From NCBI GenBank assembly GCA_016186915.1, contig JACPKU010000004.1, positions 67,168 through 131,167 on the forward strand: DNA of 64,000 nucleotides. The letters run 5' to 3'. The notes beneath the pieces are model-generated. The model was not told where the DNA came from. It ran no database searches and worked only from the letters and a program-made list of their open reading frames with translations. A program made the translations under genes and the position numbers. Each line of letters begins with the position of its first letter. Positions within the stretch are counted from its first letter, which is position 1. Below are positions 5,201 through 55,081 of this stretch, piece by piece. This DNA is from Candidatus Doudnabacteria bacterium (GTDB lineage: Bacteria > Patescibacteriota > Doudnabacteria > UBA920 > O2-02-FULL-48-8).

Positions 5201-6154
5201 ATGAATCACCACAAGCTCATTATAATCGGTTCGGGGCCAGCAGGATTGACTGCGGCCTTGTACGCGGCCAGGGCAGAACTCAAGCCTTTGGTTATTGCCG
5301 GTGTCACCTTTGGCGGACAGCTGATGACCACCACTGAGGTGGAAAATTTTCCGGGTTTTCCAGACGGCAGGCAGGGACCGGAACTCATGCAAGATATGGT
5401 TAAACAGGCAGAACGATTTGGCGCCCAGATGATTTATGATGATGCCATTAAGGTTGATTTTTCCGCCAAAGGCGGATCCGCCTCGGGCGGAAAGAATCAA
5501 CCGTTCAAAGTAGCCACTGGTGATAAGGAATTTACTGCCGACTCCGTAATCATTGCCACGGGCGCCACTTACAAATGGCTAGGTTTGCCCTCGGAGACCA
5601 AATATCGAGGCAAAGGAATTTCTGCCTGCGCCACATGCGATGGGTTTTTCTTCAAGGAGAAGGAGATAATCGTGGTGGGCGGCGGGGACGCGGCCATGGA
5701 AGAGGCTTTGTATCTGACCAAGTTTGCCAGTAAGGTTGTGATTCTTAATCGTACAGGAAAGCTTCGCGCGTCAAAAATTATGCAGGATCGGGTCAAGGCC
5801 AACAGCAAGATCAGCATTGAATACAATAAGCAAGTTGAAGAGTTTTTGGGAGGAGAGAAGCTTACCGGCGGCAAGATCAAGGATAGTGTCAGCGGCCAGG
5901 CGGATGAACGAAAATTTGACGGCGCGTTTATTGCCATAGGACACAAACCAAGCTCGGATATTTTCCGAGGCCAGATTGAGCTGGATGAAAAGGGGTTTGT
6001 AATACCGAAGGATCTGACGCGCACCTCGGTGGAGGGGGTGTTTGTAGCAGGCGATGTCCAGGATCACCGCTACCGCCAAGCCGTGACTGCCGCAGGATTG
6101 GGCTGTATGGCGGCTTTGGACGCGGAGAAGTATTTAGAAATGGACCATGGATAA
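5201..6154 (+). CDS. trxB: Thioredoxin reductase
   Basis: IIGSGPAGLTAALYAAR, CATCDGFFF redox-active motif, GGGDAAMEEALYLT NADPH site, AGDVQD. Carries an in-frame palindromic-element insertion encoding KGGSASGGK at 5463-5490. Confidence 0.85.
   Translation: MNHHKLIIIGSGPAGLTAALYAARAELKPLVIAGVTFGGQLMTTTEVENFPGFPDGRQGPELMQDMVKQAERFGAQMIYDDAIKVDFSAKGGSASGGKNQPFKVATGDKEFTADSVIIATGATYKWLGLPSETKYRGKGISACATCDGFFFKEKEIIVVGGGDAAMEEALYLTKFASKVVILNRTGKLRASKIMQDRVKANSKISIEYNKQVEEFLGGEKLTGGKIKDSVSGQADERKFDGAFIAIGHKPSSDIFRGQIELDEKGFVIPKDLTRTSVEGVFVAGDVQDHRYRQAVTAAGLGCMAALDAEKYLEMDHG
5463..5490. repeat. 28-bp GGATCC-centred palindromic element (ccgccaaaggcggatccgcctcgggcgg), in frame within trxB
   Basis: Near-perfect palindrome. 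Family members at 33673, 33744, 43853 and 47351. Confidence 0.8.
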
Positions 6155-16418: not shown

Positions 16419-16567
16419 CGGAGAGATTTTCCAGCCTTCGCTAAAGCTTCGGCGGATCCGCCGGAGCCTTGTGCGGAGGCGGAGAACTCTCACGGACTTG
16501 CGTCCACACGCTCCTGCCTGTCCGCCGAAATTTCGATGAAGGCGGAAAGCTGCGCGCCCCGCACTAA
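16419..16567 (-). pseudogene. tRNA-Leu-like copy interrupted by palindromic insertions
   Basis: Aligns to tRNA-Leu(CAG) T-arm, variable arm and the 3' part of the anticodon arm. Has a ~50-nt insertion in the T-loop and a ~34-nt insertion replacing the 5' anticodon stem. Both insertions contain ccgcc/ggcgg hairpins. No matching 5' acceptor strand nearby. Confidence 0.3.
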
Positions 16568-19000: not shown

Positions 19001-20959
19001 TCAAAGCTTGGCTTTTATCTTCTCTGCCAAGGAGCGGCCTACTACATTGGAAAGTTCGGTCATGTTAGCAGCTTTTAAAGCCGCGACAGAGCCAAATTTA
19101 CTGAGTAGTTGTTTTTTCTTTTGTGGTCCGATTCCGGGGATAGTGTCCAAGCTGGATAAAAGTAGGGATTGGGATCGGAGTTTGCGGTGGAAGGTTACGG
19201 CGAATCGGTGCGCTTCGTCGCGAATGCGCTGAAGGAGAAACAAAGCAATGGAATTAGGGGGAAGGGTTAAGGGTTTAGGATGCCTAGGCAGAAATATTTC
19301 CTCCAAGCGTTTGGCTAGACCAATGATAGGAATTTTTGTTTTTTTATTGTAAATTGAAAATTGAGATTTGGAAATTGCCGCGATAGCGGCGTTAAGTTGC
19401 CCGCGACCGCCGTCAATGAGGATAAGGTCAGGCAAGGGCCAGGCTTTGTTCCGTGTTCCGTGATCCGTGCCGCCTTTGGCGAGCCTCGCCTCTGGCGGGA
19501 TCCGTGACCTGGAGAATCTCCTTTCCAGCATCTCGCGCATCATAGTGTAATCGTCGGGCGTGTGTTTGCTTCGGATCTTGAATCGCCGATAATCTTGTTT
19601 TTTGGGCCGTCCGTAATCAAATACTACCATTGAGCCGACAGGATTCATCCCTTGAACATTGGAAATATCATAGGCCTCGATTCGACCGGGCAATTTGGAT
19701 AAATTAAGCACGCGTTGCAATTCTTTAAGCGAAGCAAGCAGCCTGGCTTCTTCTAGCAGATTTTTATCACCAGTGCTTTCTAAGTACTGTTTGGCGTTTT
19801 CTGTGCCGAGTTGGATGAGCTTGAGCTTCTGGCCGCGGGATGGAACGAAGATTCGCGGACGTAACTCCCCCTCACCAGCTCTCGGCAGCCGGTGAGGTAG
19901 GGAATTTCCTCTTATACTAAGAGGGGGTTTTTTTGCAGCTACACCTCCCCTTATATTAAGGGGAGGCTGGGAGGGGTTATAACCCTGGGCTGGTAATAGA
20001 ATCTCCCTCGGCCAGCTACTCGCTTCCAAATAATATTTCGGCAGAAATTCATCTAAGATTTCTGCGGGTGTTGCTCCTTTGGTGTTTTTGAGAATAAAGT
20101 TTTCTTTTCTAATCAATTTGCCTTCCCGAATGAGAAATAAATTGATCGAGCCGAGACTGCCCGTAAGATAGAGACTAAAAATATCCTGATCAACTTTTTT
20201 CGGATACACCAGTTTTTGTTTTTCTAATACTCTATTAATAGTAAAGATCTGGTCTCGGATTCGCGCCGCTTTTTCATACTGTCTGTTTCTGCTTAGTTGG
20301 CTCATTTGGGATTTTAAATCGTCGAGCGTTTTTAGCTGCCAGCCGGATAAAAGTTGGACGATCTGATCAATAGCTTTTCGATACTCCGCCAAAGAAATTT
20401 TGCCGATACAGACACCCGGACACTTGCCAATGTGATAATAAAAACATGGCTTGGTGCCAACCTTGGAATTGGAGCAATAAGGAAAAATTTTACGGATCAA
20501 ACGCAAGGTTTGTTTGATGGAATAAGAGGATGTGTAAGGGCCTAAGTAGCGCGCCGATTTACCTGCCCGCCGTAGCTTTAGCGAAGGCGGGTCGGCAATT
20601 TTGCGCTCGAAGTCTATGGTCGGGATTTCGTCCTGGATATTGATTTTTATAAACTGAAAATTTTTGTCGTCTTTCAGCATCATATTGTATTTGGGCTGGA
20701 ATTCCTTGATGAAATTGTTTTCCAAAATCAGGCTTTCGGTTTCATTGTCTGTGATCACATAGCTTAGATCCCGGATTTGGCTGATCATCTGCTGAATCCT
20801 GTTTGATCTTGCTGGGTCGGGCTGGAAATAAGAACGGACTCGGTTTTTAAGCTTGTTGGCCTTGCCCACATACAAAATATCGCCAGCGGCGTTTTTGAAA
20901 ATATAGACGCCAGGTCTGGCTGGTAGTTGTTTGGTTTTTTGAGCCATGCTTTTGCGCAT
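19001..20959 (-). CDS. uvrC: Excinuclease ABC subunit C
   Basis: N-terminal GIY-YIG (PGVYIFKN..GDILYVGKA), UvrBC-interacting region, RNase H-like domain, C-terminal HhH (IPGIGPQKKKQLLSKFGS). Carries in-frame repeat insertions (19460-19489, 19861-19995, 20566-20591). Confidence 0.85.
   Translation of the reverse strand: MRKSMAQKTKQLPARPGVYIFKNAAGDILYVGKANKLKNRVRSYFQPDPARSNRIQQMISQIRDLSYVITDNETESLILENNFIKEFQPKYNMMLKDDKNFQFIKINIQDEIPTIDFERKIADPPSLKLRRAGKSARYLGPYTSSYSIKQTLRLIRKIFPYCSNSKVGTKPCFYYHIGKCPGVCIGKISLAEYRKAIDQIVQLLSGWQLKTLDDLKSQMSQLSRNRQYEKAARIRDQIFTINRVLEKQKLVYPKKVDQDIFSLYLTGSLGSINLFLIREGKLIRKENFILKNTKGATPAEILDEFLPKYYLEASSWPREILLPAQGYNPSQPPLNIRGGVAAKKPPLSIRGNSLPHRLPRAGEGELRPRIFVPSRGQKLKLIQLGTENAKQYLESTGDKNLLEEARLLASLKELQRVLNLSKLPGRIEAYDISNVQGMNPVGSMVVFDYGRPKKQDYRRFKIRSKHTPDDYTMMREMLERRFSRSRIPPEARLAKGGTDHGTRNKAWPLPDLILIDGGRGQLNAAIAAISKSQFSIYNKKTKIPIIGLAKRLEEIFLPRHPKPLTLPPNSIALFLLQRIRDEAHRFAVTFHRKLRSQSLLLSSLDTIPGIGPQKKKQLLSKFGSVAALKAANMTELSNVVGRSLAEKIKAKL
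19460..19489. repeat. CCGCC..GGCGG palindromic element variant in frame in uvrC
   Basis: ccgcctttggcgagcctcgcctctggcgg encodes RLAKGGTDHG in UvrC. Confidence 0.6.
19861..19995. repeat. Modular G-tract hairpin repeat cluster in frame within uvrC
   Basis: cccctcaccagctctcggcagccggtgaggtaggg, cctcttatactaagaggggg, cctccccttatattaaggggagg, gggaggggttataaccc. Encodes ~45 aa (..PPLNIRGGVAAKKPPLSIRGNSLPHRLPRAGEGELRP..) without stops. Confidence 0.65.
20566..20591. repeat. CCCGCC-gtagctttagcgaa-GGCGGG hairpin element in frame in uvrC
   Basis: Encodes PPSLKLRRAG. A related loop motif, gaagctttagcg, occurs at 9399-9422 and 16436-16460. Confidence 0.55.
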
Positions 20960-22150: not shown

Positions 22151-22192
22151 AGCATTCCCTTTTTGCCACATATGTGGCAAAAAGGGAATGCT
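22151..22192. repeat. Perfect 42-bp palindrome centred on CATATG
   Basis: agcattccctttttgccacatatgtggcaaaaagggaatgct. Confidence 0.7.
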
Positions 22193-33428: not shown

Positions 33429-34613
33429 ATGGCTGAGGACTATTATTCAATTTTGGGTGTTGCCAAAACCGCAACCGCAGAAGAGATTAAGAAAGCTTAC
33501 AGAAAATTGGCACACAAGCATCATCCGGACAAAGGTCAAGGCGGGGATCCTGAAAAATTCAAACAGGCCAGTGAAGCTTATCAGGTTTTATCCAACGCAG
33601 AGACGCGGGGCCAGTATGACCAGTTTGGCACGACTTTCGAACAGGCTCGCAGGCAAGGTTACGGTGGTTTTTCCGCCAAAGGCGGACCAGCCTCTGGCTG
33701 GGATTTTTCTGATTTTATGCGCGGCTTCGATTTTGGCGATTTTTCCGCCGGAGGCGGATCCGCCTTTGGCGGAGAAGATGCCTTTGATATTTTTTCCGGG
33801 ATTTTTGGCGGCCAAGCTACGGGCAGACGACCGCGCAGAGCGCGGGGCGTGGATCTGGAGATGGAGCTGGATATTACTTTTGACGAGGCAGTATTTGGCG
33901 TGGCAAAAAAGATTAAGCTTGAAAAAAAAGACAAATGCTCCGCTTGCGAAGGGTCTGGAGCAAGGCCTGGGAGCAAGATTGTTACTTGTGCCAGATGTCA
34001 CGGCACCGGACAAATCCGAACGCATCGTCGAACAATTCTTGGACAAATTGCCCAAGTCAGTGTATGTGACCAATGCGATGGCAGCGGCAAGGTGGCCGAA
34101 GAAGCATGTCAGGAGTGTGACGGGAGCGGCATAGTCAGAAAAGAGAAAACACTGGAGGTGAAAATTCCGGCTGGGGTGGATAATGGTACCAGAATCAGAA
34201 TCAGCAACGAGGGCGAGGCTGGATACAAAGGGTCAAGTCCCGGCGATTTGTATTTACGGCTTAATGTGGCGCCGCATCCGGAATTCAAACGGGAAGGCCA
34301 AGATATCTATTTGGAAATTCCCATCAGTTTTTACCAGGCCGCGCTTGGCACCACCATTGAGGTGCCAACCATTGATGGCAGAGTTAGTTTGAAGATCCCG
34401 GCCGGCACGCAATCCGGCAAGGTTTTCCGGCTGAAAAATAAAGGAGTGGTAAAAGTGAACGGGTCTTCTCGCGGCGAGCAATATGTAACGGCCAATGTCG
34501 TTACCCCGGCCAAGCTTACCAAGAAAGAAAAAGAATTGTTCAAACAACTGGCAGAAGAAAACGGCGAGACTGTCGACGTGGATGAGAGTCTCTGGTCTAA
34601 ATTCACAAGCTAA
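33429..34613 (+). CDS. dnaJ: Chaperone DnaJ
   Basis: J domain (HPD: KHHPDK), G/F region, four CxxCxGxG zinc-finger repeats, C-terminal substrate-binding domain. G/F region contains two copies of the 28-bp palindromic element. Confidence 0.85.
33673..33701. repeat. 28-bp palindromic element (degenerate copy) in frame in dnaJ
   Basis: ccgccaaaggcggaccagcctctggctgg. Confidence 0.6.
33744..33771. repeat. 28-bp palindromic element in frame in dnaJ
   Basis: ccgccggaggcggatccgcctttggcgg encodes [11 protein letters not shown]. Confidence 0.8.
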
Positions 34614-39128: not shown

Positions 39129-39707
39129 TTACAGTTTGATTTTTGATGCTTGATTTTTGATTTCTATAATCGTTCTTTTCACGGTATCATAAATCACAGG
39201 CAATTCCAGATAATCGATAAGGATGGCCAGCCAGGCCACGGCCGCGTGCCACTGAAAGATCCCTTCGTATTGCGTAAAATGCTCGATGACGACTTCATCC
39301 GTAATCCAGAGAATATGCAGCCATTGGATATTGATAAACAAAAGGTAAAGAAAATTTTTCGCAGTAAATTTTTCGCGCAAAAAGTGGAGGTATAATATAG
39401 AGGTGCTGATAATGGCCGGGATTTCGCTGTAATCAAGGAACGTAGAAACCGCGCCCCAAAAAGACGGGAACACGAAATAGCTGGTTCCGGTCAGACGAAG
39501 CAGAACTACGTCGGTAAACAGCCAATAAAGGTGGAAAATTTGAATAAAAAATAAAAGTGTGGTTGCAGTGAGCACCAGCGTATAATTATTTTGATACCAA
39601 GCCCAGAATTTTTGGAACATCAAGTTTTTTAACAGATCGTCACTCCGCCTGAGGCGGATCGCGATGGTTATAACTAATATCATCATACCATGAAAGAGCG
39701 TCTGCAA
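39129..39707 (-). CDS. Hypothetical membrane protein
   Basis: Multi-TM ORF. Contains a 13-bp ccgcctgaggcgg palindrome near its 5' end. Confidence 0.4.
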   Translation of the reverse strand: MQTLFHGMMILVITIAIRLRRSDDLLKNLMFQKFWAWYQNNYTLVLTATTLLFFIQIFHLYWLFTDVVLLRLTGTSYFVFPSFWGAVSTFLDYSEIPAIISTSILYLHFLREKFTAKNFLYLLFINIQWLHILWITDEVVIEHFTQYEGIFQWHAAVAWLAILIDYLELPVIYDTVKRTIIEIKNQASKIKL

Positions 39708-41025: not shown

Positions 41026-42273
41026 ATGCCTAACCAGAAACAAACACTAAAAGAAAAAAAACATATTGTGATTTTGGGCGGCGGGTTTGCCGGCGTGCGC
41101 GCCGCTTTGGATTTGGGAGAGTATTTTAAGCGTGATGATGCGTATGAAATAATTCTTATAGATAAAAAAGACTATCATCTTTACCATGCCGCACTCTATG
41201 AAGCGGCCACCGCGCAGCACGGATTGGTGGAAGCCAGCCAGGTGAAGCGGGCGGTGGTGATCCCTTTTGGCTCCATTTTGAAACGGAGCAAAGTTAAGCA
41301 TTTCAAAGCTTTTATCGATCACGTCGACCTGGACGATGGCAAGGTCGTGACAGATTCGAGGATTGTTTATTTTGATTATTTAGTGACTGCGATGGGCAGT
41401 GTCAGCGATTATTATGGGATTCAGGGAATGGACAAATATGCTTTCACCTTGAAAAGCCTGGATGACGCGATCATGATACGCAATAGGATTGAAGAGTTGG
41501 TAAGCAAGAAAGACAAAGGAGATATTGTTATCGGGGGCGGCGGGTTTGCCGGCGTGGAATTTGCCGGCGAGGTTTACAATTTACTTAAGCATGAGTGCGA
41601 ATACCATAAGAAAGATTTAGCAAAATTTTCTGTAACAATTTTGGAAGGGTCGAGCAATTATTTGCCTGGCTTGTCAGAAAAAGTTTCGAAATTAGCAGCG
41701 GAGAGACTTGCTAAACAAAATGTGCAGGGAAAATTTTCTTCCATAATCACTGAAGTTGGCAGCAATTACGTTGTGCTCAACGAAAAAGACAGGATTGATT
41801 TCGATTTACTGATCTGGACCGGTGGGGTGCGATCCTGTGTCCTACCCTTTAGTGAAAAATTGGAACAGGACAAGAAAGGCCGGACAGTGGTTAACGAATT
41901 TTTGAACATCAGAAAATATCCAAATGTTTTTATTGTAGGCGATAATGTCTGTTTTATCGACAAATTGACGAAGAGTCCAGCGCCCCAGACTGCGCAAGAA
42001 GCTATCCGGCAAGGGCGGCTGGCCGCGAAAAATATTTACCGATTAGTTCGGGGTAAGGAACTGCTGCCCTACCATGCCGGCCCCAGCAGATATGTGATTC
42101 CGGTTTCCGGCAAATATGCCATCATGTACACAAAAAATTTAATTATCGCAGGTTTTTTTGGCTGGATGATCAGAAGGTTTGTAGATTTGAGATATTTTGT
42201 TTCAGTTTTGACATTTATCAAGGCTTTGAAATTGTGGCTTTCCGAAACAAGCGTATTTATGAAAAATGACTAG
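41026..42273 (+). CDS. Type II NADH dehydrogenase-like FAD-dependent oxidoreductase
   Basis: Two Rossmann GxGxxG motifs (ILGGGFAGV, VIGGGGFAGVEFAGE). NDH-2 family organisation. Confidence 0.65.
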   Translation: MPNQKQTLKEKKHIVILGGGFAGVRAALDLGEYFKRDDAYEIILIDKKDYHLYHAALYEAATAQHGLVEASQVKRAVVIPFGSILKRSKVKHFKAFIDHVDLDDGKVVTDSRIVYFDYLVTAMGSVSDYYGIQGMDKYAFTLKSLDDAIMIRNRIEELVSKKDKGDIVIGGGGFAGVEFAGEVYNLLKHECEYHKKDLAKFSVTILEGSSNYLPGLSEKVSKLAAERLAKQNVQGKFSSIITEVGSNYVVLNEKDRIDFDLLIWTGGVRSCVLPFSEKLEQDKKGRTVVNEFLNIRKYPNVFIVGDNVCFIDKLTKSPAPQTAQEAIRQGRLAAKNIYRLVRGKELLPYHAGPSRYVIPVSGKYAIMYTKNLIIAGFFGWMIRRFVDLRYFVSVLTFIKALKLWLSETSVFMKND

Positions 42274-42850
42274 ACCCAGAAGGTCCACCTCGTTTAAGAC
42301 AGATCGCCGCAAGGCGACCGTAAAAAGAGACCGGACGCGGCGGTCTCTAACGGGGTTTACTCTGATAGAGTTGCTTGTAGTTATTGCAATCATCGGGGTT
42401 TTAGCAGCAGTGATTCTAGGCAACATCCGCCGATCCAAAGAACAAGCGTATTATGCCCGGGCCGCGGGCGAGGCCAAAAGCATTGCCGCTGCCATCCAGT
42501 TGTATATCAGTGATAATGGCGACTACCCGGCTGACGCCAACCGCAATCTTCCTCCTGGTCTGGAAGCATATCTGCCCGCAGGCGAGTGGCCCAAAGGTCC
42601 TTGGCCTGGCAGTGTGTATGATTGGGATAATTGGCAGGACCCAGATAATCAATGGCAGCGGATTTACCAAATCAGCATTCGATTTTGCGAAATTGGCGCG
42701 CCTGAAACCTGCCAGTTTCCCAACATTGAGTGGGCAGAGGACTTTGCGGTAAACAGCAGTGTTTATTATTGTTTGGAAGGGGCGTGCCGGCCGCATATCG
42801 GCGAGCCAATTGGTTATCCGGGGAAGTGCATTAATTGTGGCGGTTCTTAG
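42266..42850 (+). CDS. Type IV pilin-like/pseudopilin with N-terminal methylation motif
   Basis: G|FTLIELLVVIAIIGVLAAV class III signal. Cys-rich C-terminus. Unusually long (~29 aa) basic leader. Confidence 0.65.
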   Translation: MTRPRRSTSFKTDRRKATVKRDRTRRSLTGFTLIELLVVIAIIGVLAAVILGNIRRSKEQAYYARAAGEAKSIAAAIQLYISDNGDYPADANRNLPPGLEAYLPAGEWPKGPWPGSVYDWDNWQDPDNQWQRIYQISIRFCEIGAPETCQFPNIEWAEDFAVNSSVYYCLEGACRPHIGEPIGYPGKCINCGGS

Positions 42851-42918: not shown

Positions 42919-44034
42919 ATGAATCGAGGATTTTGGGATAAGTTAACTAAACCAATAATGATTTTGGCGCCTATGGCCAATGTCACTGATTTTGCATTTC
43001 GTAAAATGATTGCGCAATACGGCAAGCCAGATGTAATGTGGACAGAGTTTGTGTCAGTTGATGGCTTGTGTTCGCCAGGCAAGGAGAGGCTGATGATTGA
43101 TTTGAAATATTCAGAAATTGAACGGCCAATTGTCGCCCAATTTTTTGGGAGCAAACCAGAAAATTTTTATAAGTGTGCTCAACTTGCACAAGAACTTAAA
43201 TTTGACGGCATAGATATCAATATGGGTTGCCCTGACAAGTCAGTGGAAAAGCAAGGCGCTGGGGCGGCACTGATGAAAAACCCAAAATTAGCTAAAGAGA
43301 TAATTTTAGCTACTCAAGAAGGTGCGGGAGAGTTGCCAGTTTCTGTCAAAACACGTCTTGGATACAACAAGATTGATTTTGAAGACTGGCTACCGACATT
43401 GTTTGAGGCCAAACCTGCAGCCGTAATTTTTCATCTGCGAACGCGCAAAGAGATGTCTAAGGTGCCGGCGCATTGGGAAGTGATGCCGGAAATAATGAGC
43501 CTTATTGGGGCTTCCCCCCTTGAAACAAGGGGGGAAAGAGGGGGGTTAGAGGCAAAGCCCTCTGATCTAACTCCCCCTACCCAGCTCTCGGCAGCTGGTG
43601 AGGTAGGGGACTTCTCTTATTCTAAGAGGGGGTTTAGCGCTCCATTGATTCTTGGCAATGGGGATGTGATGAGTTTGCAGCAAGGAATAGAAAAATGCGC
43701 GCAGACAGGTGCAGACGGCGTAATGTTTGGCAGAGGGATTTTTGGCAATCCGTGGTTGTTTAACAGAGAGATTAGGGTTGAGGGATTAGAGATTAGAGAC
43801 AAACTCAAGGTCATGATTGAGCATACCAAGCTGTTCGAAAAGACTTTTATATCCGCCAGAGGCGGACCCGCCTCTGGCGGGAAGAGCTTTGAAGTGATGA
43901 AGAAGCACTACAAAGCCTATGTCAACAATTTCGAGGGCGCGAAGGAATTGCGGGCGGAGTTGATGGAAGGAGCGTCCACAGCCCAAGACGTAGAAAGAAT
44001 AGTCAAGAATTTTTTACTTGCGGATCAAAAGTAG
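42919..44034 (+). CDS. dus: tRNA-dihydrouridine synthase
   Basis: ILAPMANVTDFAFR...IDINMGCP TIM-barrel Dus motifs. Contains a ~40-aa repeat-derived insertion (43513-43635) and a palindromic element (43853-43880). Confidence 0.8.
   Translation: MNRGFWDKLTKPIMILAPMANVTDFAFRKMIAQYGKPDVMWTEFVSVDGLCSPGKERLMIDLKYSEIERPIVAQFFGSKPENFYKCAQLAQELKFDGIDINMGCPDKSVEKQGAGAALMKNPKLAKEIILATQEGAGELPVSVKTRLGYNKIDFEDWLPTLFEAKPAAVIFHLRTRKEMSKVPAHWEVMPEIMSLIGASPLETRGERGGLEAKPSDLTPPTQLSAAGEVGDFSYSKRGFSAPLILGNGDVMSLQQGIEKCAQTGADGVMFGRGIFGNPWLFNREIRVEGLEIRDKLKVMIEHTKLFEKTFISARGGPASGGKSFEVMKKHYKAYVNNFEGAKELRAELMEGASTAQDVERIVKNFLLADQK
43513..43635. repeat. Modular G-tract hairpin repeat cluster in frame within dus
   Basis: cccccttgaaacaagggggg, ggggggttagag..ctctgatctaactcccc, ctacccagctctcggcagctggtgaggtagggg, ctcttattctaagaggggg. 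Confidence 0.65.
43853..43880. repeat. 28-bp palindromic element in frame in dus
   Basis: ccgccagaggcggacccgcctctggcgg encodes SARGGPASGGK. Confidence 0.8.
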
Positions 44035-46335: not shown

Positions 46336-48600
46336 TCATTCTTTTGTAAAATCACAATCTTTATTACTGCATTTGATAACCCCGTCTTTGGCAAAGATTA
46401 ATAGATCGCCAGACTTCGGGCATTTTTCGCCCGTGGGTTTAGTGGGCAAACTGAATTTACATTTTGGATAGCGAGAGCAGGAATAAAAGATGCCGCGCTT
46501 GCTTCTTCGCTCCACCAGCTCGCCTTCTCCGCAAACCGGGCAAGCAACGCCTGTGGTTTTTTCAATTTTTTTGATGTTCTTGCATTCCGGATAGCCGGTG
46601 CAGCCGAGGAAAGACCCGAACCGGCCAAACTTTACGGCCATGGGGCGGCCGCATTTGTCGCAAACCTCGCCTTTGTTCTCATCAATGATTTTTTGCTCCT
46701 CTGGCATGGGCCTGGTGAACTTGCATTCCGGATAGTTGGAGCAGGCAATGAATTTGCCAAACCGCCCGAATTTTATAACCAGCGGATGCCCGGAGTCTGG
46801 GCATTTTTCATCCAGGGTTTCCACGTGTTTTTCCACGGTTGTTTCTTTTTGCTTTAGGTTCTCATGAAAAGGGCTATAAAATTCTTTTATCACCGGCACC
46901 CATTGCTTGTTGCCTGCGGCAATTTCGTCCAAGCTCTCTTCCATGCCTGCGGTAAATTGGTAATCTACGATTTTGGGAAAATGCTCCACCAAAATATCAT
47001 TGACGATGAATCCCATTTCCGAAGGATGAAATTTTTTGTCAATCTTATGCACGTAGTCGCGGTCCTGGATGGTGCTGATTGTCGGCGCATAAGTGGAAGG
47101 CCGGCCAATGCCATATTCTTCCATTGTCTTAATTAAGCTTGCATCAGTGAACCTTGGGGGCGGCTGGGTAAAATGCTGTTTGGGCAAAATCTTGACCACT
47201 TTGGGTTTATCGCCTTTATTAAGTTGGGGCAATAATCCCTCTTCCTCCTCTTCGCCATTTTCTTCGTCTTTGCCTTCCAGATAGACTTTCATAAAGCCGT
47301 CAAATTTTATAATCTGCCCAGTGGAGCGGAAAATGTAAGCTTTTTCTTTCCCGCCGGAGGCGGGTCCGCCTTTGGCGGATATTTCCGTGTCCACTGAAGT
47401 TGCGTCAAACAAAGCCTCAGGCATTTGCGTGGCGATTGTTCGTTTCCAGATAAGCTCATAAAGCCGATATTGATTGCGGTCCAAATACTGTTTTATGCTT
47501 TCCGGATCCCGAGTTAGATCTGTGGGCCGGATGGCTTCGTGGGCTTCCTGGGCGTTTTTGCTTTTCGATGCGAACTGGCGCGGCCGGTCCAAAAGATAAT
47601 CCTTGCCATAACGCTGACTGATCGCAGACTTGGCTGATTGCAGGGCAAAGTCAGAAAGATTAACTGAATCAGTACGCATATAGGTAATTAAGCCCGTGGC
47701 TTCATCTTCCCCCAATTCCACGCCTTCGTAGAGTTGCTGGGCGTACATCATGGTTTGTTTGGCACTAAAGCCCAATTTACGGGCGGCTTCCTGCTGCATG
47801 GTGGAGGTGATAAAAGGCGCGGCCGGCGTTCTTTTGACTTCTTTTTTGTTGACCTCAACTACTTGGGCAGGATAGCTGGCAAGATCGGATAAAATCTTTT
47901 TGGCTTGGATCTCGTTTTTGATTGCCAGTTTGTCCAAATTTTTTCCATCAACTTTCGCAAGCTTGCCTAAGAAATTGCTGTCTTTATGGAAAGTGGCGAT
48001 AATGCTCCAGTATTCTTCAGGCTTGAATTTTTGGATTTCTTTTTCGCGTTCTACAATTAAGCGCACTGCCACTGACTGCACGCGGCCAGCGGAAAGCCCG
48101 CGTTTGACTTTTTTCCACAAGAAAGGCGAGAGTTCATAGCCGACTAATCGATCAAGCACGCGCCTTGCTTGCTGGGCATCCACCAAGTGCAGATCTAACT
48201 CACGCGGATTTTTTAAAGCCTCCTCAATCGCCGACTTAGTAATTTCGTGAAAAGCAATGCGTTTTATTTTGGGATTTGGGATTTGGGATTTGGGATTTTC
48301 CAAGCCGAGTGCTTGGATAAGGTGCCACGCGATGGCTTCGCCTTCGCGGTCTTCGTCTGTGGCGAGGATTATTTCTGGCGCGTCTTTAGCTAATTTTTTA
48401 AGCTCTGCGATTTTCTTTTTGGCTTTGGGCGGGACCAGGTAAGTCGGTTCAAAATCATGCTCAATATCAATCCCCATTTTGCTGGTGGGCAAATCGCGGA
48501 TATGGCCAAACGAGGCCTCCACCTTGTATTGACCATCCAGAAAACGCGAAATGGTTTTCGCCTTGGTGGGAGATTCAACGATGACTAAAGATTTAGGCAT
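46336..48600 (-). CDS. topA: DNA topoisomerase I
   Basis: TOPRIM N-terminus (SLVIVESPTKAKTI), catalytic region, multiple C-terminal C4 zinc ribbons. Carries an in-frame palindromic element (47351-47378) and a tandem heptamer tract (48271-48298). Confidence 0.9.
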   Translation of the reverse strand: MPKSLVIVESPTKAKTISRFLDGQYKVEASFGHIRDLPTSKMGIDIEHDFEPTYLVPPKAKKKIAELKKLAKDAPEIILATDEDREGEAIAWHLIQALGLENPKSQIPNPKIKRIAFHEITKSAIEEALKNPRELDLHLVDAQQARRVLDRLVGYELSPFLWKKVKRGLSAGRVQSVAVRLIVEREKEIQKFKPEEYWSIIATFHKDSNFLGKLAKVDGKNLDKLAIKNEIQAKKILSDLASYPAQVVEVNKKEVKRTPAAPFITSTMQQEAARKLGFSAKQTMMYAQQLYEGVELGEDEATGLITYMRTDSVNLSDFALQSAKSAISQRYGKDYLLDRPRQFASKSKNAQEAHEAIRPTDLTRDPESIKQYLDRNQYRLYELIWKRTIATQMPEALFDATSVDTEISAKGGPASGGKEKAYIFRSTGQIIKFDGFMKVYLEGKDEENGEEEEEGLLPQLNKGDKPKVVKILPKQHFTQPPPRFTDASLIKTMEEYGIGRPSTYAPTISTIQDRDYVHKIDKKFHPSEMGFIVNDILVEHFPKIVDYQFTAGMEESLDEIAAGNKQWVPVIKEFYSPFHENLKQKETTVEKHVETLDEKCPDSGHPLVIKFGRFGKFIACSNYPECKFTRPMPEEQKIIDENKGEVCDKCGRPMAVKFGRFGSFLGCTGYPECKNIKKIEKTTGVACPVCGEGELVERRSKRGIFYSCSRYPKCKFSLPTKPTGEKCPKSGDLLIFAKDGVIKCSNKDCDFTKE
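47351..47378. repeat. 28-bp palindromic element in frame in topA
   Basis: ccgccggaggcgggtccgcctttggcgg encodes [10 protein letters not shown]. Confidence 0.8.
48271..48298. repeat. Perfect tandem heptanucleotide repeat (gggattt)x4 inside topA
   Basis: Read directly. Encodes PKSQIPNPK on the coding strand. Confidence 0.85.
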
Positions 48601-48731
48601 AAATCCGAATATCTAATATCGAAATCCGAAACAATATCTAAATTCAAAGCACAAATATCTAAACGTTTTGAATTTTGTATTTTGAAATTCGAATTTGTTT
48701 CGTGCTTCGAATTTCGTGCTTCGGATTTAAC

Positions 48732-49880
48732 TTAATCATTCTTATCTAAAAGAATAACACTTGTCAAACCTAGTTTCCCTAAAATCGCCAAAGTTTCTGT
48801 TTCAGTTGCCCACCTTGGACAGCAATAATTATCAATGATTACAGGTTTTAATTCGATTTTTTTAATTTCCGGTCCAGTCATTGTCCCGCCTATCTCTGAT
48901 GGGCGAGGCTCGCCCACATTCGTGGGCGGCATCGTCATAGTTATCGTTACGGTTAAGCCTTCCCTTGTATCAATGCTCCACATTTGGTCAAATACGAAAT
49001 TGCCTAAAGAATAAAAGATCCATTTGCCTTGGTACTGTTCAATGGTCTGGATCCAATGGGGGTGGTGGCCAATGACAAGGTCAGCGCCGGCATCTATGGC
49101 ACCATGGGCAAAGTCAATTTGTTTTTGGTTCGGTTCCCTGGTATATTCAGCGCCGGCATGCATGCTGACAATTACGATATCAGCATAGTGCCCTTTTATA
49201 TCTAAAATATCTTGCCTTAGTCGATCTAAATTATTGAAGTCCGAAATTTGCGTGTGTGTGCTTCTGCCTGCCTCGCCGGCAGGCGGGCCGCCGTCGTTGT
49301 GAGCGGCGTAACTGTAGGAAAGAAAGCCAAACACAATCCCATTTTTCTCTATAATTGCTGCGGCGTGTTCAGTCGCAGGTTTTTTGGTGCCAGATGCTTG
49401 GATATTGTATTGATTCAAAAGATCAATAGTGTATTCTAGGCTTTCAATGCCATAATCCAAGGAATGATTGTTAGCAGTTGAGAGCACGTCAAAGCCAGCA
49501 AACGATAATCCACGTGCTACGTCTGGATGTGCGCCAAATACCAAGCCTTGCCTGGCTCGGATAGCATTTTGTGCAAACTGGGACTCTAAATTAGCAAACG
49601 CGATATCAGCTTGCTGGACCTGCGAGGCAACATTTAGGAACGGCAGATTAGGGTTATTGGCTTTCAAGATTTCTTGGTCCACGTTGCGCGAGAGCATAAT
49701 GTCGCCGGCGAAAAACAGGGTGGTAGGTTTTGACGGTGCGATCTGGTTAAATGTCTGCTGGATTTCGGGACTAGTTTGTTGTGGCCTTGATACAATGACG
49801 ATAACGATGACAATGACCGCTGCAATCAAAATTCCAGAAAATGTTTTTAATATTTTTGTTCGGTCAATAGTCATTGTCAT
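48732..49880 (-). CDS. CapA/PgsA-family metallophosphatase-like protein
   Basis: N-terminal TM. CapA motifs (FANLESQF, LSTANNHSLDYG, GHHPH). Confidence 0.7.
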   Translation of the reverse strand: MTMTIDRTKILKTFSGILIAAVIVIVIVIVSRPQQTSPEIQQTFNQIAPSKPTTLFFAGDIMLSRNVDQEILKANNPNLPFLNVASQVQQADIAFANLESQFAQNAIRARQGLVFGAHPDVARGLSFAGFDVLSTANNHSLDYGIESLEYTIDLLNQYNIQASGTKKPATEHAAAIIEKNGIVFGFLSYSYAAHNDGGPPAGEAGRSTHTQISDFNNLDRLRQDILDIKGHYADIVIVSMHAGAEYTREPNQKQIDFAHGAIDAGADLVIGHHPHWIQTIEQYQGKWIFYSLGNFVFDQMWSIDTREGLTVTITMTMPPTNVGEPRPSEIGGTMTGPEIKKIELKPVIIDNYCCPRWATETETLAILGKLGLTSVILLDKND

Positions 49881-50976: not shown

Positions 50977-51008
50977 TTAATTTGTGAGGGAGGTTGATAA
51001 GGAGCTGT

Positions 51009-51038
51009 TGACAAAAGGCCCCAAGTTTGCTAGAATGC
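51009..51038 (+). promoter_or_regulatory. Strong sigma70-like promoter TTGACA-17-TAGAAT
   Basis: ttgacaaaaggccccaagtttgctagaatgc. Confidence 0.5.
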
Positions 51039-51039
51039 A

Positions 51040-51480
51040 ATGTTTCCTTTATATTATTAGTTAGATCTTTAAAGTTTACAAGTGAGTTAGTATTTTCCAC
51101 CCTACTCTGCGAGCGGCGAAAGTGAGCAGCATCCCTCCTATTGTTCGCGAGTAACCTTAAGCTAAGGTCGAGATGGTTTTCCATTTTTACCTTACGCTCG
51201 TAGGTAGGGTTGAGAATGGTAAGCTCGGCACAGGCCGCAAAATTACCAGCTGTCAGGTTTCGCTCGAGTAGCCGGAAAATTATCGGCTGTCATCCCGCCT
51301 CGTGGGAACTTCGGCGGGATGCAGCCTACTTTCTCAGCCGGACGAACCGGCTTCCGAAGGTTAATTTTCCGGCTACTCTCGCTGCAAGTGTAAGTATGGA
51401 TACTACTTGCTCACGCCGGAGTTCTGGCGTAGGTTAATTTTGCGTCTATGCCTCGCTTGGAAAAAAAAAGGGGGGGGGAG
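51040..51480 (+). ncRNA. Candidate structured non-coding RNA or long leader with nested long-range inverted repeats, ending in an A9G9 tract
   Basis: No credible ORF. 17-bp inverted repeat cgagtagccggaaaatt / aattttccggctactcg (51270-51287 / 51363-51380). Outer complementarity between 51104-51130 and 51375-51420. Internal cccgcc..ggcggg hairpin. Not assignable to a known RNA family by eye. Confidence 0.3.
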
Positions 51481-51577
51481 GAGGAAGGTAAGCGTGCTGG
51501 ATTCTGGATAGTAACGAAAAGTTAGTGAACAGAGTTTAGTGCGTAATTGTCAAGTTACGGATCCAGAAGGAGGAGCT

Positions 51578-51709
51578 ATGGAAGACACTGAATCGGGGGA
51601 CTTCCCATCCGTGTTGGGTATGATCGTCCTCCTTGTCCTCGTCGTCCTCGCCGAATGCGTCATTTGGTTTTTTGAGGTCCGGGATTTTATCCTGGGCTGG
51701 CGTCGGTAA
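51578..51709 (+). CDS. Small hydrophobic protein (43 aa) in a GC-rich cassette
   Basis: Perfect SD aggagg 6 nt upstream. GC-rich. Confidence 0.3.
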   Translation: MEDTESGDFPSVLGMIVLLVLVVLAECVIWFFEVRDFILGWRR

Positions 51710-51740
51710 CCCAATCACAATCACCGGTGAGGAGAACACG

Positions 51741-52049
51741 ATGCCTTATAACGCATGGCAAGACCAGGTCGCCGGTGTTGCGGTCGGTTTCGCTGTTGTG
51801 GCGGCTGCCGCTGGCCTGGCATTCGGACCGTCCGAAACAAGCGGGGCTCTGCTCAGCTTGCTCGGCAAGGCTCTTGCTGTAGGCGCTGTGTTGCTCATCT
51901 GCCTGGCAATCTGCGCCCGTTTGGCCTGGCGACTGAAGAGAAGAAGAACTGGGAGCCTCCCGTTCGGTGAGGAAATGTACGACTCTCACGGAGGACTGCC
52001 TGGCTCAGAAAGGGAGGTGGCCCGGATGTCTCACGAGGGGCGCTAACGT
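51741..52049 (+). CDS. Small membrane protein (~102 aa) in a GC-rich cassette
   Basis: SD ggtgaggag. Ala/Gly/Val-rich TM segments, basic RLKRRR. Confidence 0.35.
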
Positions 52050-52121
52050 TGGCGTCGTTGTCGCAGCTGCGGAGGTCCCGCGGCTAAACTACAACGTCTG
52101 CTGTCGTTCGGAGGGAACGAG

Positions 52122-52325
52122 ATGCATCGTCGCGTCAGCTCGTTCGTACCGTCGCCTCCACCGGATCTGTCGGCGGAGGCTCCACTGGTCAAGGCCCTCC
52201 TCGGAGTACAGCTCTCGTCTGACGAGGCTGCTTCACTCCCGTTGAGCGCCGATCTCGGCAGCGTTCAGGACTGGAGACAGGTCATAGCGAGAAGCAACAG
52301 GCTCGCCGGCCTGGAGGAGTCCTGA
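52122..52325 (+). CDS. Small hypothetical protein (67 aa) in a GC-rich cassette
   Basis: SD ggaggg. GC-rich. Confidence 0.3.
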   Translation: MHRRVSSFVPSPPPDLSAEAPLVKALLGVQLSSDEAASLPLSADLGSVQDWRQVIARSNRLAGLEES

Positions 52326-52327
52326 CC

Positions 52328-52546
52328 ATGTCCCGCAGTCGTTGGACTGTAGGGGCTAGGTTCGTCCGGTCCCAGCGGGTCAGTCCGCCAGGACCGGCTT
52401 CACGGGGAGTCACGAGTCCTCTGCCGTCTCTCCCGAGGCAGCAGCCGAAGGCGGTCGAACCGCCACCGAGTGCAACCAAGGAAGAGCAGCGAGAGTGGGC
52501 TCGCAAGATTTTTGACGGCATGTTCCTACCATCCCGCCAGTAAGAC
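52328..52546 (+). CDS. Small hypothetical protein (71 aa) in a GC-rich cassette
   Basis: SD ggagg. Followed by a terminator at 52583-52620. Confidence 0.3.
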
Positions 52547-52582
52547 CGATACCCTGATCCCAGCCAGGGTGCCAAAGCAACA

Positions 52583-52620
52583 AGGCTCGTCGTTTCCTTA
52601 AACGACGAGCCTCTTTTTTT
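52583..52620 (+). terminator. Rho-independent terminator (ggctcgtcgtttccttaaacgacgagcc + T7)
   Basis: Long perfect stem plus TTTTTTT. Confidence 0.6.
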
Positions 52621-52814
52621 GTAGTGGTTATCTTCAATAAGTTCTCATCCTGTTTACCATCGCGAGCGAGGATAAGCACAGTTCATTGGGAGCGTGTTGG
52701 TCTGTTAAGAAGATTGCTTTGTCTGCTAAACTTAACGCTATCCCTCCTCGCAATGGTAACCGCACTAGAACCATCGCGAGCGAGGGAACGTCAGATGTTC
52801 CGGAGCGAAGCGAT

Positions 52815-53153
52815 CTAATCTAAGTCGTTATATAGATCTCTCCAATCTTTGTTATTAGTTTCGATAAGTTTAATTTTCTTTTTTCTAGAACCTGCCTTGA
52901 TTTGTTTTTCTCTTGCCAAAACAGCATCATAGTCGTCTCCGATCTCAAAATACACCAGCTTAGTGATATTGTATTTTTTAGTAAATCCATGAACGAGTTT
53001 GTTTTTGTGTTCCCAGACCCGAGCTTTTAAAGGTTTGCTAGTAAACCCAGTATAAAGTGTAGTATTTGTCGGGTTCGTCATGATATAAACAAAATACTGC
53101 TCGTCTTGCATATATATAAAGATTGCTTCACCCCGCCAAGGCGGGGTTCGCAA
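52815..53153 (-). CDS. GIY-YIG-family nuclease (COG2827-like)
   Basis: YFVYIMTN..NTTLYTGFTSKPLKARVWEHK....GFTKKY....LVYFE..DDYD.AVLAREKQIK. Confidence 0.7.
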   Translation of the reverse strand: MRTPPWRGEAIFIYMQDEQYFVYIMTNPTNTTLYTGFTSKPLKARVWEHKNKLVHGFTKKYNITKLVYFEIGDDYDAVLAREKQIKAGSRKKKIKLIETNNKDWRDLYNDLD

Positions 53154-53189
53154 TGGTATAAAAATAAAGAGTTAAGTTGAATTACTATA

Positions 53190-53768: not shown

Positions 53769-55081
53769 ATTCGTTTGTGATACCTAATTATTATAGGGCT
53801 GCCTTCAAAGCCGAAGCGCAAACGGAACTGTTTTTCCAGTAAATTTTTCCAAGCCGGAGCAAACGCATTAGGGAAATTTACCGCAAGCTCGAAGATTGGC
53901 GGGTTGGTCCTTATTTGGGTGAGGCCATAAATTTTTGGGGCGCGCTGGTCATCCATTTTGCCGGGGAAATTTTCGTTGAGAAGTTTACCTAAGAAACCGT
54001 CCAGTTCTTCTTGTGGGATTTGGACCAAAGCTTTTTCCACCACCTCTTGGACTAATTGTAGCATTTTTTTCAACCCTTCTTGAGTTTTAGCGGAGACGTA
54101 GACTACTGGCGCAAACCAAAGCTTGGGAAGATAGTGGGGCAGTTTGTCTAGAAATTTTTCCCTTTCAGTTGCCGCCAGCATATCAATTTTGTTCAAAAGC
54201 ACCAGAACTTTTTTATTTGATTCCAAAATTTTAGTGGCGATAGCCTGGTCCTGAATGGTAATTTCCGCGGCGGCGTCGAGGACGAACAGCACCACATCAA
54301 CCCGGGCCAAGGTATTGATCGACTGCATGGCTGCGGCAGCTGAAACATCATCATCACTCTTCCATTTTTTCTTTATCCCAGCAGTATCAAGCAGGAGAAA
54401 CTTTTGGTCATCAAATTGAAAAGGAATTTCCACCGTGGATCTGGTTGTCCCGGGTTTATTGTCAACCAAAAGCCGTTCTTGTTTGATCAGGGCGTTGACT
54501 AAAGATGACTTGCCGACGTTCGGCTTGCCGATAAACGCAATTTTTAACCGAAGGTCACCTTCGTCAACGAAGGTGACCTTCGGAAATTTAGTAACCACTG
54601 CGTCCAACAAATCGCCCATGCCCGAGCCGTTGGCAGAAGAAATGAGAAAGGGCCTGCCCAAGCCTAACTTTTGGAAGTTGCGGGCGATGACTTCCGATTT
54701 CTGATTGCGAACATCGATCTTGTTGACTGCTAAGACTTTTGGTTTTTTGGCCCGGTTAAGCTGGGCGGCCACTGCCAAATCTTTGGCTGAAACCTGTGAC
54801 TTGCCGTCAACCATCAAAAGAATTAGATCCGCCTCTTCGATGGCAATCGCTGTTTGTTTCTGGACATTTTTTTCCAGTTCAGAGTCTGGTTTGTTGTTGA
54901 TTCCTGCTGTATCAATCAAATAAAAATCAAACCCATTCCAGGAAGTCAGGCCGTAATGCCGGTCCCTGGTAGTGCCCTCTTCGGGGAAAGTCAGGGCTTT
55001 GTAGGTTCTGAGGACCTTGTTAAAAAAAGTTGATTTGCCGCTGTTGGGAAGACCCACAATCGCGACTAAAGGGGTGTTCAT
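53765..55081 (-). CDS. der: GTPase Der (EngA)
   Basis: Two G domains (GLPNSGKSTFFN, GKPNVGKSSLVN) plus KH-like C-terminus. Start set at MNTPLVAIVG. Confidence 0.85.
   Translation of the reverse strand: MNTPLVAIVGLPNSGKSTFFNKVLRTYKALTFPEEGTTRDRHYGLTSWNGFDFYLIDTAGINNKPDSELEKNVQKQTAIAIEEADLILLMVDGKSQVSAKDLAVAAQLNRAKKPKVLAVNKIDVRNQKSEVIARNFQKLGLGRPFLISSANGSGMGDLLDAVVTKFPKVTFVDEGDLRLKIAFIGKPNVGKSSLVNALIKQERLLVDNKPGTTRSTVEIPFQFDDQKFLLLDTAGIKKKWKSDDDVSAAAAMQSINTLARVDVVLFVLDAAAEITIQDQAIATKILESNKKVLVLLNKIDMLAATEREKFLDKLPHYLPKLWFAPVVYVSAKTQEGLKKMLQLVQEVVEKALVQIPQEELDGFLGKLLNENFPGKMDDQRAPKIYGLTQIRTNPPIFELAVNFPNAFAPAWKNLLEKQFRLRFGFEGSPIIIRYHKRI

Follow-up and report, generated by a model that had tools for sequence, protein, structure and literature searches.

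Why do two unrelated enzymes of one bacterium carry nearly the same peptide, each in a loop? The question is raised by a stretch of 64,000 nucleotides from a Candidatus Doudnabacteria genome (contig JACPKU010000004.1, positions 67,168 to 131,167 of the forward strand), which was analysed over its full length and is called the window here; coordinates are counted from its first letter. A sequence-only reading of the window had noticed near-identical palindromes in topA (47351-47378) and in dus, the gene of a tRNA-dihydrouridine synthase (43853-43880), and had proposed a mobile DNA element as the source of the shared peptide. Both palindromes are indeed there. At least four housekeeping genes of this genome carry an in-frame insertion of a 30-base GC-rich palindrome with the reading frame intact. 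In its behaviour this palindrome is akin to a mobile DNA element, very small and apparently not described before, through which proteins gain a flexible Ser-Ala-Gly loop.

Copies of the element in the window

The copy in dus occupies 43852..43881 on the plus strand, reads TCCGCC-AGA-GGCGGA followed by CCCGCC-TCT-GGCGGG, and encodes SARGGPASGG. Its core at 43853-43880, CCGCCAGAGGCGG-AC-CCGCCTCTGGCGG, is a perfect 28-nt palindrome, with T before and G after it, and translates to SARGGPASGGK, in context ...FISARGGPASGGKSF... The copy in topA lies on the minus strand at 47350..47379 and reads TCCGCC-AAA-GGCGGA followed by CCCGCC-TCC-GGCGGG, which corresponds to residues 408-417 of TopA; the reverse complement of 47351-47378 is CCGCCAAAGGCGG-AC-CCGCCTCCGGCGG, again between T and G. 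A search of the window at up to 3 mismatches yielded five loci (5463, 33673, 33745, 43853 and 47351), against an expectation of 0.00 from 100 dinucleotide-preserving shuffles of the window. The 28-nt cores of the additional copies are 5463-5490, 33673-33700, which is slightly decayed, and 33745-33772.

The host genes were identified with Pfam, and all five copies lie inside housekeeping genes. The gene topA (46336..48600, minus strand, 754 aa) encodes Toprim, Topoisom_bac and zinc-ribbon domains, and dus (42919..44034, plus strand) encodes 371 aa. A thioredoxin reductase gene (5201..6154, plus strand, 317 aa) carries a copy of 30 nt and 10 codons at 5462..5491 on the plus strand. Two copies are found in the Gly/Phe-rich region of dnaJ (33429..34613, plus strand, 394 aa), both on the plus strand: copy 1 (33672..33701) is partly decayed, with 2 stem mismatches in its second unit, and copy 2 (33744..33773) is a further 30-nt copy. 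The density is thus about 1 per 13 kb, and all five copies share one codon phase, xCC GCC NNN GGC GGA NCC GCC NNN GGC GGx.

Two further sites in the window resemble parts of the element. A lone 15-nt unit, TCCGCC-TGA-GGCGGA, at 39644..39658 is a possible, uncertain half-element relic. An intergenic palindrome at 16443-16470, between a tRNA gene and the RNase J gene, has the element's centre GGCGGATCCGCC but truncated outer stems and may be a decayed or variant copy.

The element is an insertion relative to orthologues

According to the sequence-only reading, homologues are normally compact at both sites. Multiple alignments with 120 homologues each of TopA and Dus agree with this and show a length difference at both positions. 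Most TopA homologues read EIKGD-KKYIFRS and are compact at the insertion site of the window. A minority is occupied in the same loop, by an intact copy in P0041 and by decayed or halved copies in P0014, P0020, P0030, P0059, P0001, P0046 and P0086. The closest TopA homologue listed, named Candidatus Doudnabacteria, is about 81% identical. In Dus, 81 of 121 sequences have a compact form that is 10 residues shorter than the window at the insertion loop. The window's site holds an intact copy in P0122, P0137, P0176 and P0177 and a decayed one in P0172 and P0163; the sequence HLPLGGK, shared by a large clade, may be the relic of one unit. One Dus protein (P0121), from a Doudnabacteria metagenome-assembled genome (MAG), is 100% identical to that of the window.

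The boundaries of the insertion are also clear at the DNA level. In dnaJ, copy 2 is a clean insertion, with GAT TTT [TCCGCCGGAGGCGGATCCGCCTTTGGCGGA] GAA GAT in the window and GAT TTT GAA GAT in L124, a related Doudnabacteria locus; the decayed copy 1 likewise adds residues relative to the DnaJ of L124. In dus, the sequence GGG ATC [TCCGCCAAAGGCGGACCCGCCTTCGGCGGG] AAA AAC of L129 contrasts with the empty site GGG ATC AAG GAT of L121. The UvrA protein of the Magasanikbacteria-like locus L013 reads ...GWF[PAQGGSALGG]SVE..., whereas 117 of 120 homologues lack the insert (...KELF|SEE...). Compared with solved thioredoxin reductases, e.g. 5uth, the copy in the window's enzyme inserts about 11 residues. 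These clean DNA boundaries mean that the inserted unit is exactly 30 bp long and entered without a target-site duplication.

Rough neighbour-joining trees of TopA and Dus show the occupied sites scattered among empty ones. For example, the empty P0197 adjoins P0176, and the window adjoins the empty P0131 and P0190.

Position of the insertions in the proteins

AlphaFold models of TopA and Dus, built on the homologue alignments, place both insertions in loops. In the TopA model (mean pLDDT 84.5) the insert (residues 408-417) makes up the turn that joins strands 396-409 and 420-433, which is the tip of a beta-hairpin in the catalytic core; the pLDDT at residues 411-420 is 68. An alignment to the PDB sequence 6ozw shows a gap in the catalytic core at this site. 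The zinc ribbons start near residue 600, about 180 residues downstream of the insert. The description of this copy as lying in the region before the zinc ribbons therefore holds only loosely: it precedes them, but it belongs to the catalytic core and is not adjacent to them. In the Dus model (mean pLDDT 89.3) the insert (local pLDDT 70) belongs to the C-terminal helical domain, as had been stated from the sequence, and occupies the loop that follows helix 292-311; an alignment to 1vhn is consistent with this placement.

Dus of the window contains a second insertion (43522-43647) of 35 aa at residues ~205-235, where the pLDDT falls below 50. It is built of nested GC-rich hairpins with a folding energy of -53.8 kcal/mol, and in other Doudnabacteria Dus proteins this loop is occupied by unrelated insertions.

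Distribution across genomes

An exact scan for CCGCCNNNGGCGGAYCCGCCNNNGGCGG in one genome per GTDB species returned at least 120 loci. All 120 loci listed come from metagenome-assembled or single-cell genomes of uncultivated lineages, mainly Patescibacteria and Omnitrophota. By label, about 53 loci belong to many classes of Patescibacteria, 18 to Omnitrophota (one single-cell genome included), 13 to the PVC group, 4 to Chloroflexota and 3 to Ignavibacteriota, two of the latter on 1.6-Mb contigs of long-read MAGs. A further 11 are TPA assemblies labelled 'Gammaproteobacteria', and the remainder carry other labels or none. Among the genes that carry the element in other genomes are rpoC, dnaE, uvrA, recG, mfd, arsA, hsdR, one for a class I aminoacyl-tRNA synthetase and, again, dnaJ.

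The 'Gammaproteobacteria' labels were rejected as proof of breadth. The locus L013 (CAZHFX010000015.1) is labelled 'uncultured Gammaproteobacteria', and its UvrA is 78% identical to proteins of Candidatus Magasanikbacteria. This check shows that the labels are unreliable, and the 11 assemblies are probably also Patescibacteria.

The element is patchy and not universal. In 1.0 Mb from 80 metagenomic TopA loci, relatives of at most 57% identity that were unselected for the element, we found 0 copies at up to 2 mismatches and only 7 lone units. The related locus L124 has no copy in 22 kb. Viral contigs gave only 4 matches in 2.9 million, which is no sign of a phage vector.

In some lineages the element is part of a longer sequence. 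In a Kiritimatiellae MAG (L008, 4569-4752 and 6390-6572), and also in L003, L038 and L071, the 28-nt core sits within an intergenic repeat of about 185 nt that is present in several copies with the flanks cataggaatttt...acaatccgtctt. In the Omnitrophota loci L047, L077 and L101 the flanks extend the palindrome (gttacaggtttc...gaaacctgtaac).

Identity at the DNA level, reading phase and target

Given the peptide and the codon usage of the window, the probability of the exact codons TCC GCC. GGC GGA TCC GCC. GGC GGR is about 1.4e-4 per copy. There are also intergenic copies, and copies in the other two phases, with the readings PPxADPPxAE or RxRRIRLxRK. The codon choice, the intergenic copies and the other-phase copies show that the identity of the element lies in the DNA and not in the protein.

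The phase that falls on codon boundaries reads Ser-Ala-x-Gly-Gly-Ser/Pro-Ala-x-Gly-Gly. In stop-free spans of at least 300 aa, 51 of 57 copies are in this phase and 6 in the other two. The logo of the flanks is T(-3) y(-2) | T + core + A | r A, i.e. TyT upstream and ArA downstream; these flanks extend the dyad symmetry of the element and amount to an insertion that usually occurs at a T-Y|R-A junction. In the genes of the window, 60% of such junctions coincide with codon boundaries, so that a target preference explains part of the phase bias. The observed excess is nevertheless larger (P ~1e-18 against 1/3, P ~9e-7 against the 60% from this site bias). The second loop codon, read in coding orientation, is mostly Ser (TCN in 43 of 61 copies in long open reading frames (ORFs)), which suggests protein-level filtering. 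Of the 57 copies at Patescibacteria-labelled loci, 40 are located within stop-free spans of 150 aa or more. By label, most copies from Patescibacteria lie in long ORFs and are read in the Ser-Ala-x-Gly-Gly phase, whereas those of the PVC group are mostly outside long ORFs.

One ORF of an Omnitrophota locus (L028, 2595-4754) contains two adjacent copies in different phases (...PPKAGPPTAEVVPAEGGSAYGG...), so that copies in other phases can persist in long ORFs.

Anatomy and folding of the element

The element consists of a 15-nt mini-palindrome, TCCGCC-NNN-GGCGGA, that occurs twice in tandem and spans 30 nt or 10 codons. As a dimer of a mini-palindrome it is both a tandem direct repeat and a 30-nt palindrome, and it has two alternative folds, a single hairpin of 12-16 bp or a pair of 6-bp hairpins. 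With folding energies of -20 to -28 kcal/mol as RNA and -13 to -17 kcal/mol as DNA, it folds far more strongly than shuffled controls. Of the 61 copies in long ORFs, only 10 have 3-nt loops that are complementary to each other. For this reason a single long hairpin was rejected as the conserved structure, which is instead two small hairpins.

In the loci selected by the pattern, the gap between neighbouring units measures 2 nt for 141 of the 142 pairs, arrays of three or more units were not found, and lone units mostly resemble the remaining half of decayed dimers. Tandem-repeat slippage was rejected as the source, since there are no arrays of three or more units.

An intrinsic terminator was rejected: on both strands a T-run precedes the hairpin and an A-run comes after it. 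An Rfam scan of the whole window found only three tRNAs at the gathering score, and no structured RNA family matches the element. The copies do not form a CRISPR repeat array; they are dispersed in genes, with units 2 nt apart and in pairs only.

Weighing the explanations

We consider it likely that the palindrome represents a family of very short, non-autonomous palindromic insertion elements that are tolerated in frame. The mobile origin proposed for the shared peptide is supported by the codon identity, the five copies in the window, the presence or absence of exactly 30 nt in orthologues and the at least 120 loci elsewhere; mobility itself we infer from the distribution and from indel patterns.

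Several observations weigh against this interpretation. Target-site duplications are missing, as the junctions TTT|GAA, ATC|AAR and TTC|AGT show no duplicated bases. We saw no strain-level insertion polymorphism, i.e. no pair of filled and empty sites between near-identical strains; the closest TopA relative listed is the one at 81% identity. The copies in the window differ in their loops, so that none is demonstrably recent. Pfam annotation of essentially all genes in the window revealed no transposase, integrase or nuclease gene; the window genes encode only housekeeping functions. All-against-all clustering of 2,389 ORFs from the 120 listed loci identified no ORF family that is present up to 8 kb from the element at more than 4 of these loci. 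The unreliable labels imply that the true taxonomic range is narrower than the names suggest.

A further observation of this kind comes from the dus site, which is filled in four genomes (the window, L129, L130 and L131; 63-75% protein identity). We compared invariant residues of four- or six-fold codon families. The same codon was used in all four genomes at 6 of 7 such residues inside the element and at 4 of 82 outside (P ~9e-8). The stems are identical in the four genomes and synonymous sites elsewhere are saturated; at this site only the loops, the dinucleotide at the centre and the final base vary. In a neutral selfish relic such identity would not be seen; it requires a constraint at the DNA level, gene conversion or homogenisation, or repeated entry at exactly the same position.

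The most probable alternative is a functional cis-element under purifying selection that is spread or homogenised by recombination. It could be bound or cut by a dimeric protein, act as a cruciform in DNA uptake, repair or replication, or form a hairpin in the mRNA at which ribosomes pause between folding units. The invariant dus stems, next to varying loops, centre and flanking synonymous sites, speak for this explanation; in yeast mitochondrial GC42 clusters, where substitutions gather in the loops and the stems are conserved, the same pattern has been read as a sign of constraint (PMC4478555). The strong hairpins, the flanks that extend the dyad symmetry and the occupation of the identical TopA and Dus loops in several lineages fit as well. 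However, many orthologous copies are decayed or halved, and most relatives are empty at these sites, with none in the 22 kb of L124. The host genes are unrelated and share neither position nor operon context, and the element is absent from the 1 Mb of control loci and matches no Rfam family. We therefore regard a functional cis-element as improbable.

The copies could also have arisen de novo at each site, by template switching or hairpin-primed repair at Gly-rich GGC-GGA codons, in which case they would be convergent. Some empty sites are element-like in part, with AAA GGC GAC in TopA of L129 and L131 and, in the Dus gene of L121, GGG ATC. A GGC GGG GGA GGA sequence lies upstream of the dnaJ site, the Gly/Phe-rich region of DnaJ is a repeated host, and the window holds other, unrelated coding palindromes. 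Local templating, however, cannot yield the same 20 stem bases, 3-nt loops and 2-nt centre in more than 100 genomes, at sites that are unrelated and also in intergenic positions; moreover, the dnaJ and UvrA insertions are clean and have no local template, and the number of units is fixed at two. An origin de novo at each site is for these reasons very unlikely.

Even less can be said for a convergence of the proteins on a Gly/Ser/Ala linker or a shared functional tag, with the DNA likeness being secondary. The peptide is linker-like and lies in loops, and the Ser excess at the second loop codon (43 of 61) would agree with it. Yet the codons are fixed despite free synonymous choice, the DNA is palindromic, and intergenic and other-phase copies (PPxADPPxAE, RxRRIRLxRK) exist. 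This explanation is effectively refuted by the codon identity and the non-coding copies, and it retains hardly any probability.

An assembly or sequencing artefact, suggested by the fact that all 120 listed loci are metagenome-assembled or single-cell with no isolate among them, has a next to negligible probability, given that the element is seen across many pipelines and projects, in a single-cell genome and in long-read MAG contigs of 0.7-1.6 Mb, that the orthologous site is filled in independent samples, and that the copies differ in their loops, include decayed versions and in every case leave the reading frame intact.

Proposed mechanism and implications

We return to a mobile palindromic element. 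With no mobilising gene nearby, it would be non-autonomous and moved by a trans-acting factor that recognises the hairpins or a cruciform. A candidate mover is an HUH/Y1-type single-strand transposase acting via a 30-nt two-hairpin circle; alternatively, existing copies might serve as donors for copy-and-paste through gene conversion. The junction of the units has the same sequence as the centre, the target shows symmetry and nothing is duplicated; because of this, the fixed dimer is compatible with a single-strand circular intermediate of an HUH-type enzyme, and it would be equally compatible with a symmetric double-strand enzyme. The length of 30 is a multiple of three and the fixed, GC-only stems contain no stop codon in any frame, so that an insertion should never shift the frame and should rarely end it. 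The Ser/Ala/Gly peptide would act as a flexible linker, so that selection might leave mainly copies in the Ser-Ala-x-Gly-Gly phase and in surface loops of proteins. The element would have spread within Patescibacteria, and into or from other uncultivated lineages.

There is also a more far-reaching proposal, which as a whole we think unlikely to be right. Here the 30-nt palindrome would by itself make up the whole mobile unit, smaller than any yet described from cellular genomes. The moving form would be a single-stranded circle or dumbbell with two hairpins, the junction GGCGGA|TCCGCC serving as both cleavage and joining site, and entry would be site-specific at T-Y|R-A without duplication. 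The element would cross phyla of ultra-small or uncultivated bacteria, its stems would be actively maintained by selection or repeated homing, and it would continually remodel surface loops of essential proteins, for instance TopA, RpoC, DnaE, UvrA and DnaJ.

If the element is mobile, in-frame palindromic mobile DNA is not an oddity of Rickettsia or organelles, and compact genomes with little intergenic space recurrently absorb selfish DNA inside loops of essential proteins. The lower size limit for in-frame palindromic mobile elements would then be 30 bp. One class of lineage-specific Gly/Ser/Ala insertions in proteins of Patescibacteria, which complicate alignments, phylogenies and structure predictions, would be explained, and the element would provide a simple marker for recent gene flow among the host organisms, whose lineages make up a large share of uncultivated bacterial diversity. 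The conservation of the stems at saturated synonymous distance offers a testable case of selection or homing on DNA structure within coding sequence, and a biochemical question is raised about the enzyme that recognises TCCGCC-NNN-GGCGGA hairpins.

Neighbouring genes and other palindromes in the window

The ORF that adjoins dus (42266-42850) has a type IV pilin-like N-terminus (GFTLIELLVVIAIIGVLAA), and topA is adjoined by dprA; the pilin-like ORF and dprA are competence-related genes, typical of Patescibacteria. Between dprA and pth, a region of 2.2 kb (50977-53189) contains no ORF larger than about 137 aa and has no Rfam match, and relatives have only small ORFs at the equivalent position.

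A second palindromic core, GGCGAG-S-CTCGCC, occurs in two copies (19478-19490 and 48902-48914; 0.1 expected). Both are inside in-frame insertions that are absent from homologues, in uvrC (19470-19498) and in a PGA_cap-family gene (48873-48947). The UvrC insertion comprises about 19 aa relative to 2nrt; it has a different phase (PPEARLAKGG), a 7-nt repeat (CACGGAN)x3 and the direct repeat GATCCGTG on its flanks. The PGA_cap insertion comprises 19 aa relative to four Doudnabacteria orthologues. These orthologues also lack a further in-frame insert of 7 aa, GPPAGEA, in the same protein (49260-49298), which corresponds to a 7-bp GC hairpin GCCTGCC...GGCAGGC.

The genome seems to be generally palindrome-rich. 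A perfect 36-nt palindrome is located in the linker of the der GTPase gene (54548-54583), with no length change relative to L124, and a perfect 42-nt palindrome is intergenic, upstream of uvrA (22151-22192). A 130-nt imperfect palindrome lies between topA and the PGA_cap gene (48600-48729), and an intergenic palindrome of 35 nt is found at 2516-2550.

Comparison with known systems

A full-text literature search on palindromes in Patescibacteria or the candidate phyla radiation and on in-frame repeats found analogues only and no account of the element. Among the closest parallels are Rickettsia palindromic elements (RPEs), in-frame palindromic repeats in unrelated housekeeping genes which encode a fold-compatible peptide and have no transposase of their own (PMC10969869). 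The element is likewise palindromic, lies in frame in unrelated genes (five copies in four genes) and has no transposase of its own. It is set apart by size and taxon: RPEs are ~100-150 bp long, fall into several sequence families and are confined to Rickettsia and relatives, whereas the element is a 30-bp dimer of a 15-nt unit from Patescibacteria, Omnitrophota and other phyla.

The double-hairpin elements of fungal mitochondria reportedly have a two-hairpin architecture, as described by Paquin et al. in 2000. Like these and the mitochondrial GC clusters, the element is a short GC-rich two-hairpin repeat that encodes no enzyme, has an AT-rich target context, and keeps its stems while its loops vary. 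GC clusters, however, are organellar and mostly intergenic, and GC42 duplicates its AG target; the element is bacterial and chromosomal, mostly intragenic in Patescibacteria, a multiple of three in length, and does not duplicate its target. It is thus an analogue and not a member of the mitochondrial GC clusters.

Similar points apply to other short bacterial repeats. Repetitive extragenic palindromic (REP) sequences are GC-rich imperfect palindromes of 20-40 bp, and REPINs are doublets of them, comparable to the 28-nt core and 30-nt insert of the element. REPs and REPINs are proposed to move as single-strand hairpins via a trans-acting enzyme (PMC3733652). REPs are extragenic, bear a GTAG or CGTC tag at the 5' end, are specific to a species and occur together with a RAYT gene. 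In contrast, all five copies in the window are intragenic, and the element has TyT/ArA flanks and is shared across phyla. We saw no RAYT/Y1 HUH transposase in the 64-kb window, and none recurs within 8 kb of the 120 listed copies. With MITEs (miniature transposable elements with inverted repeats) such as Correia, ERIC and BOX the element shares its non-autonomous nature, inverted-repeat ends and the ability to sit inside genes. MITEs, however, are 50-500 bp long, derive from insertion sequences (IS) and make target-site duplications; none of this applies to the element, and we saw no IS that could be its parent. DNA uptake sequences (Neisseria DUS, Haemophilus USS) accumulate in genes, with a reading-frame bias and in poorly conserved protein regions. 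The element, too, is a DNA-level motif in genes with a frame bias. Uptake sequences, which are species- or family-specific, originate from point mutation and recombination and number about one per kb, whereas the element arrives as a 30-nt insertion, is found about once per 13 kb and crosses phyla.

Defining features set the element apart from three of these groups: size and taxon from RPEs, the location and the missing GTAG/CGTC tag from REPs, and the lack of target-site duplication and IS ancestry from MITEs. In its behaviour it resembles RPEs, mitochondrial GC clusters and double-hairpin elements, while being far smaller and more widely spread.

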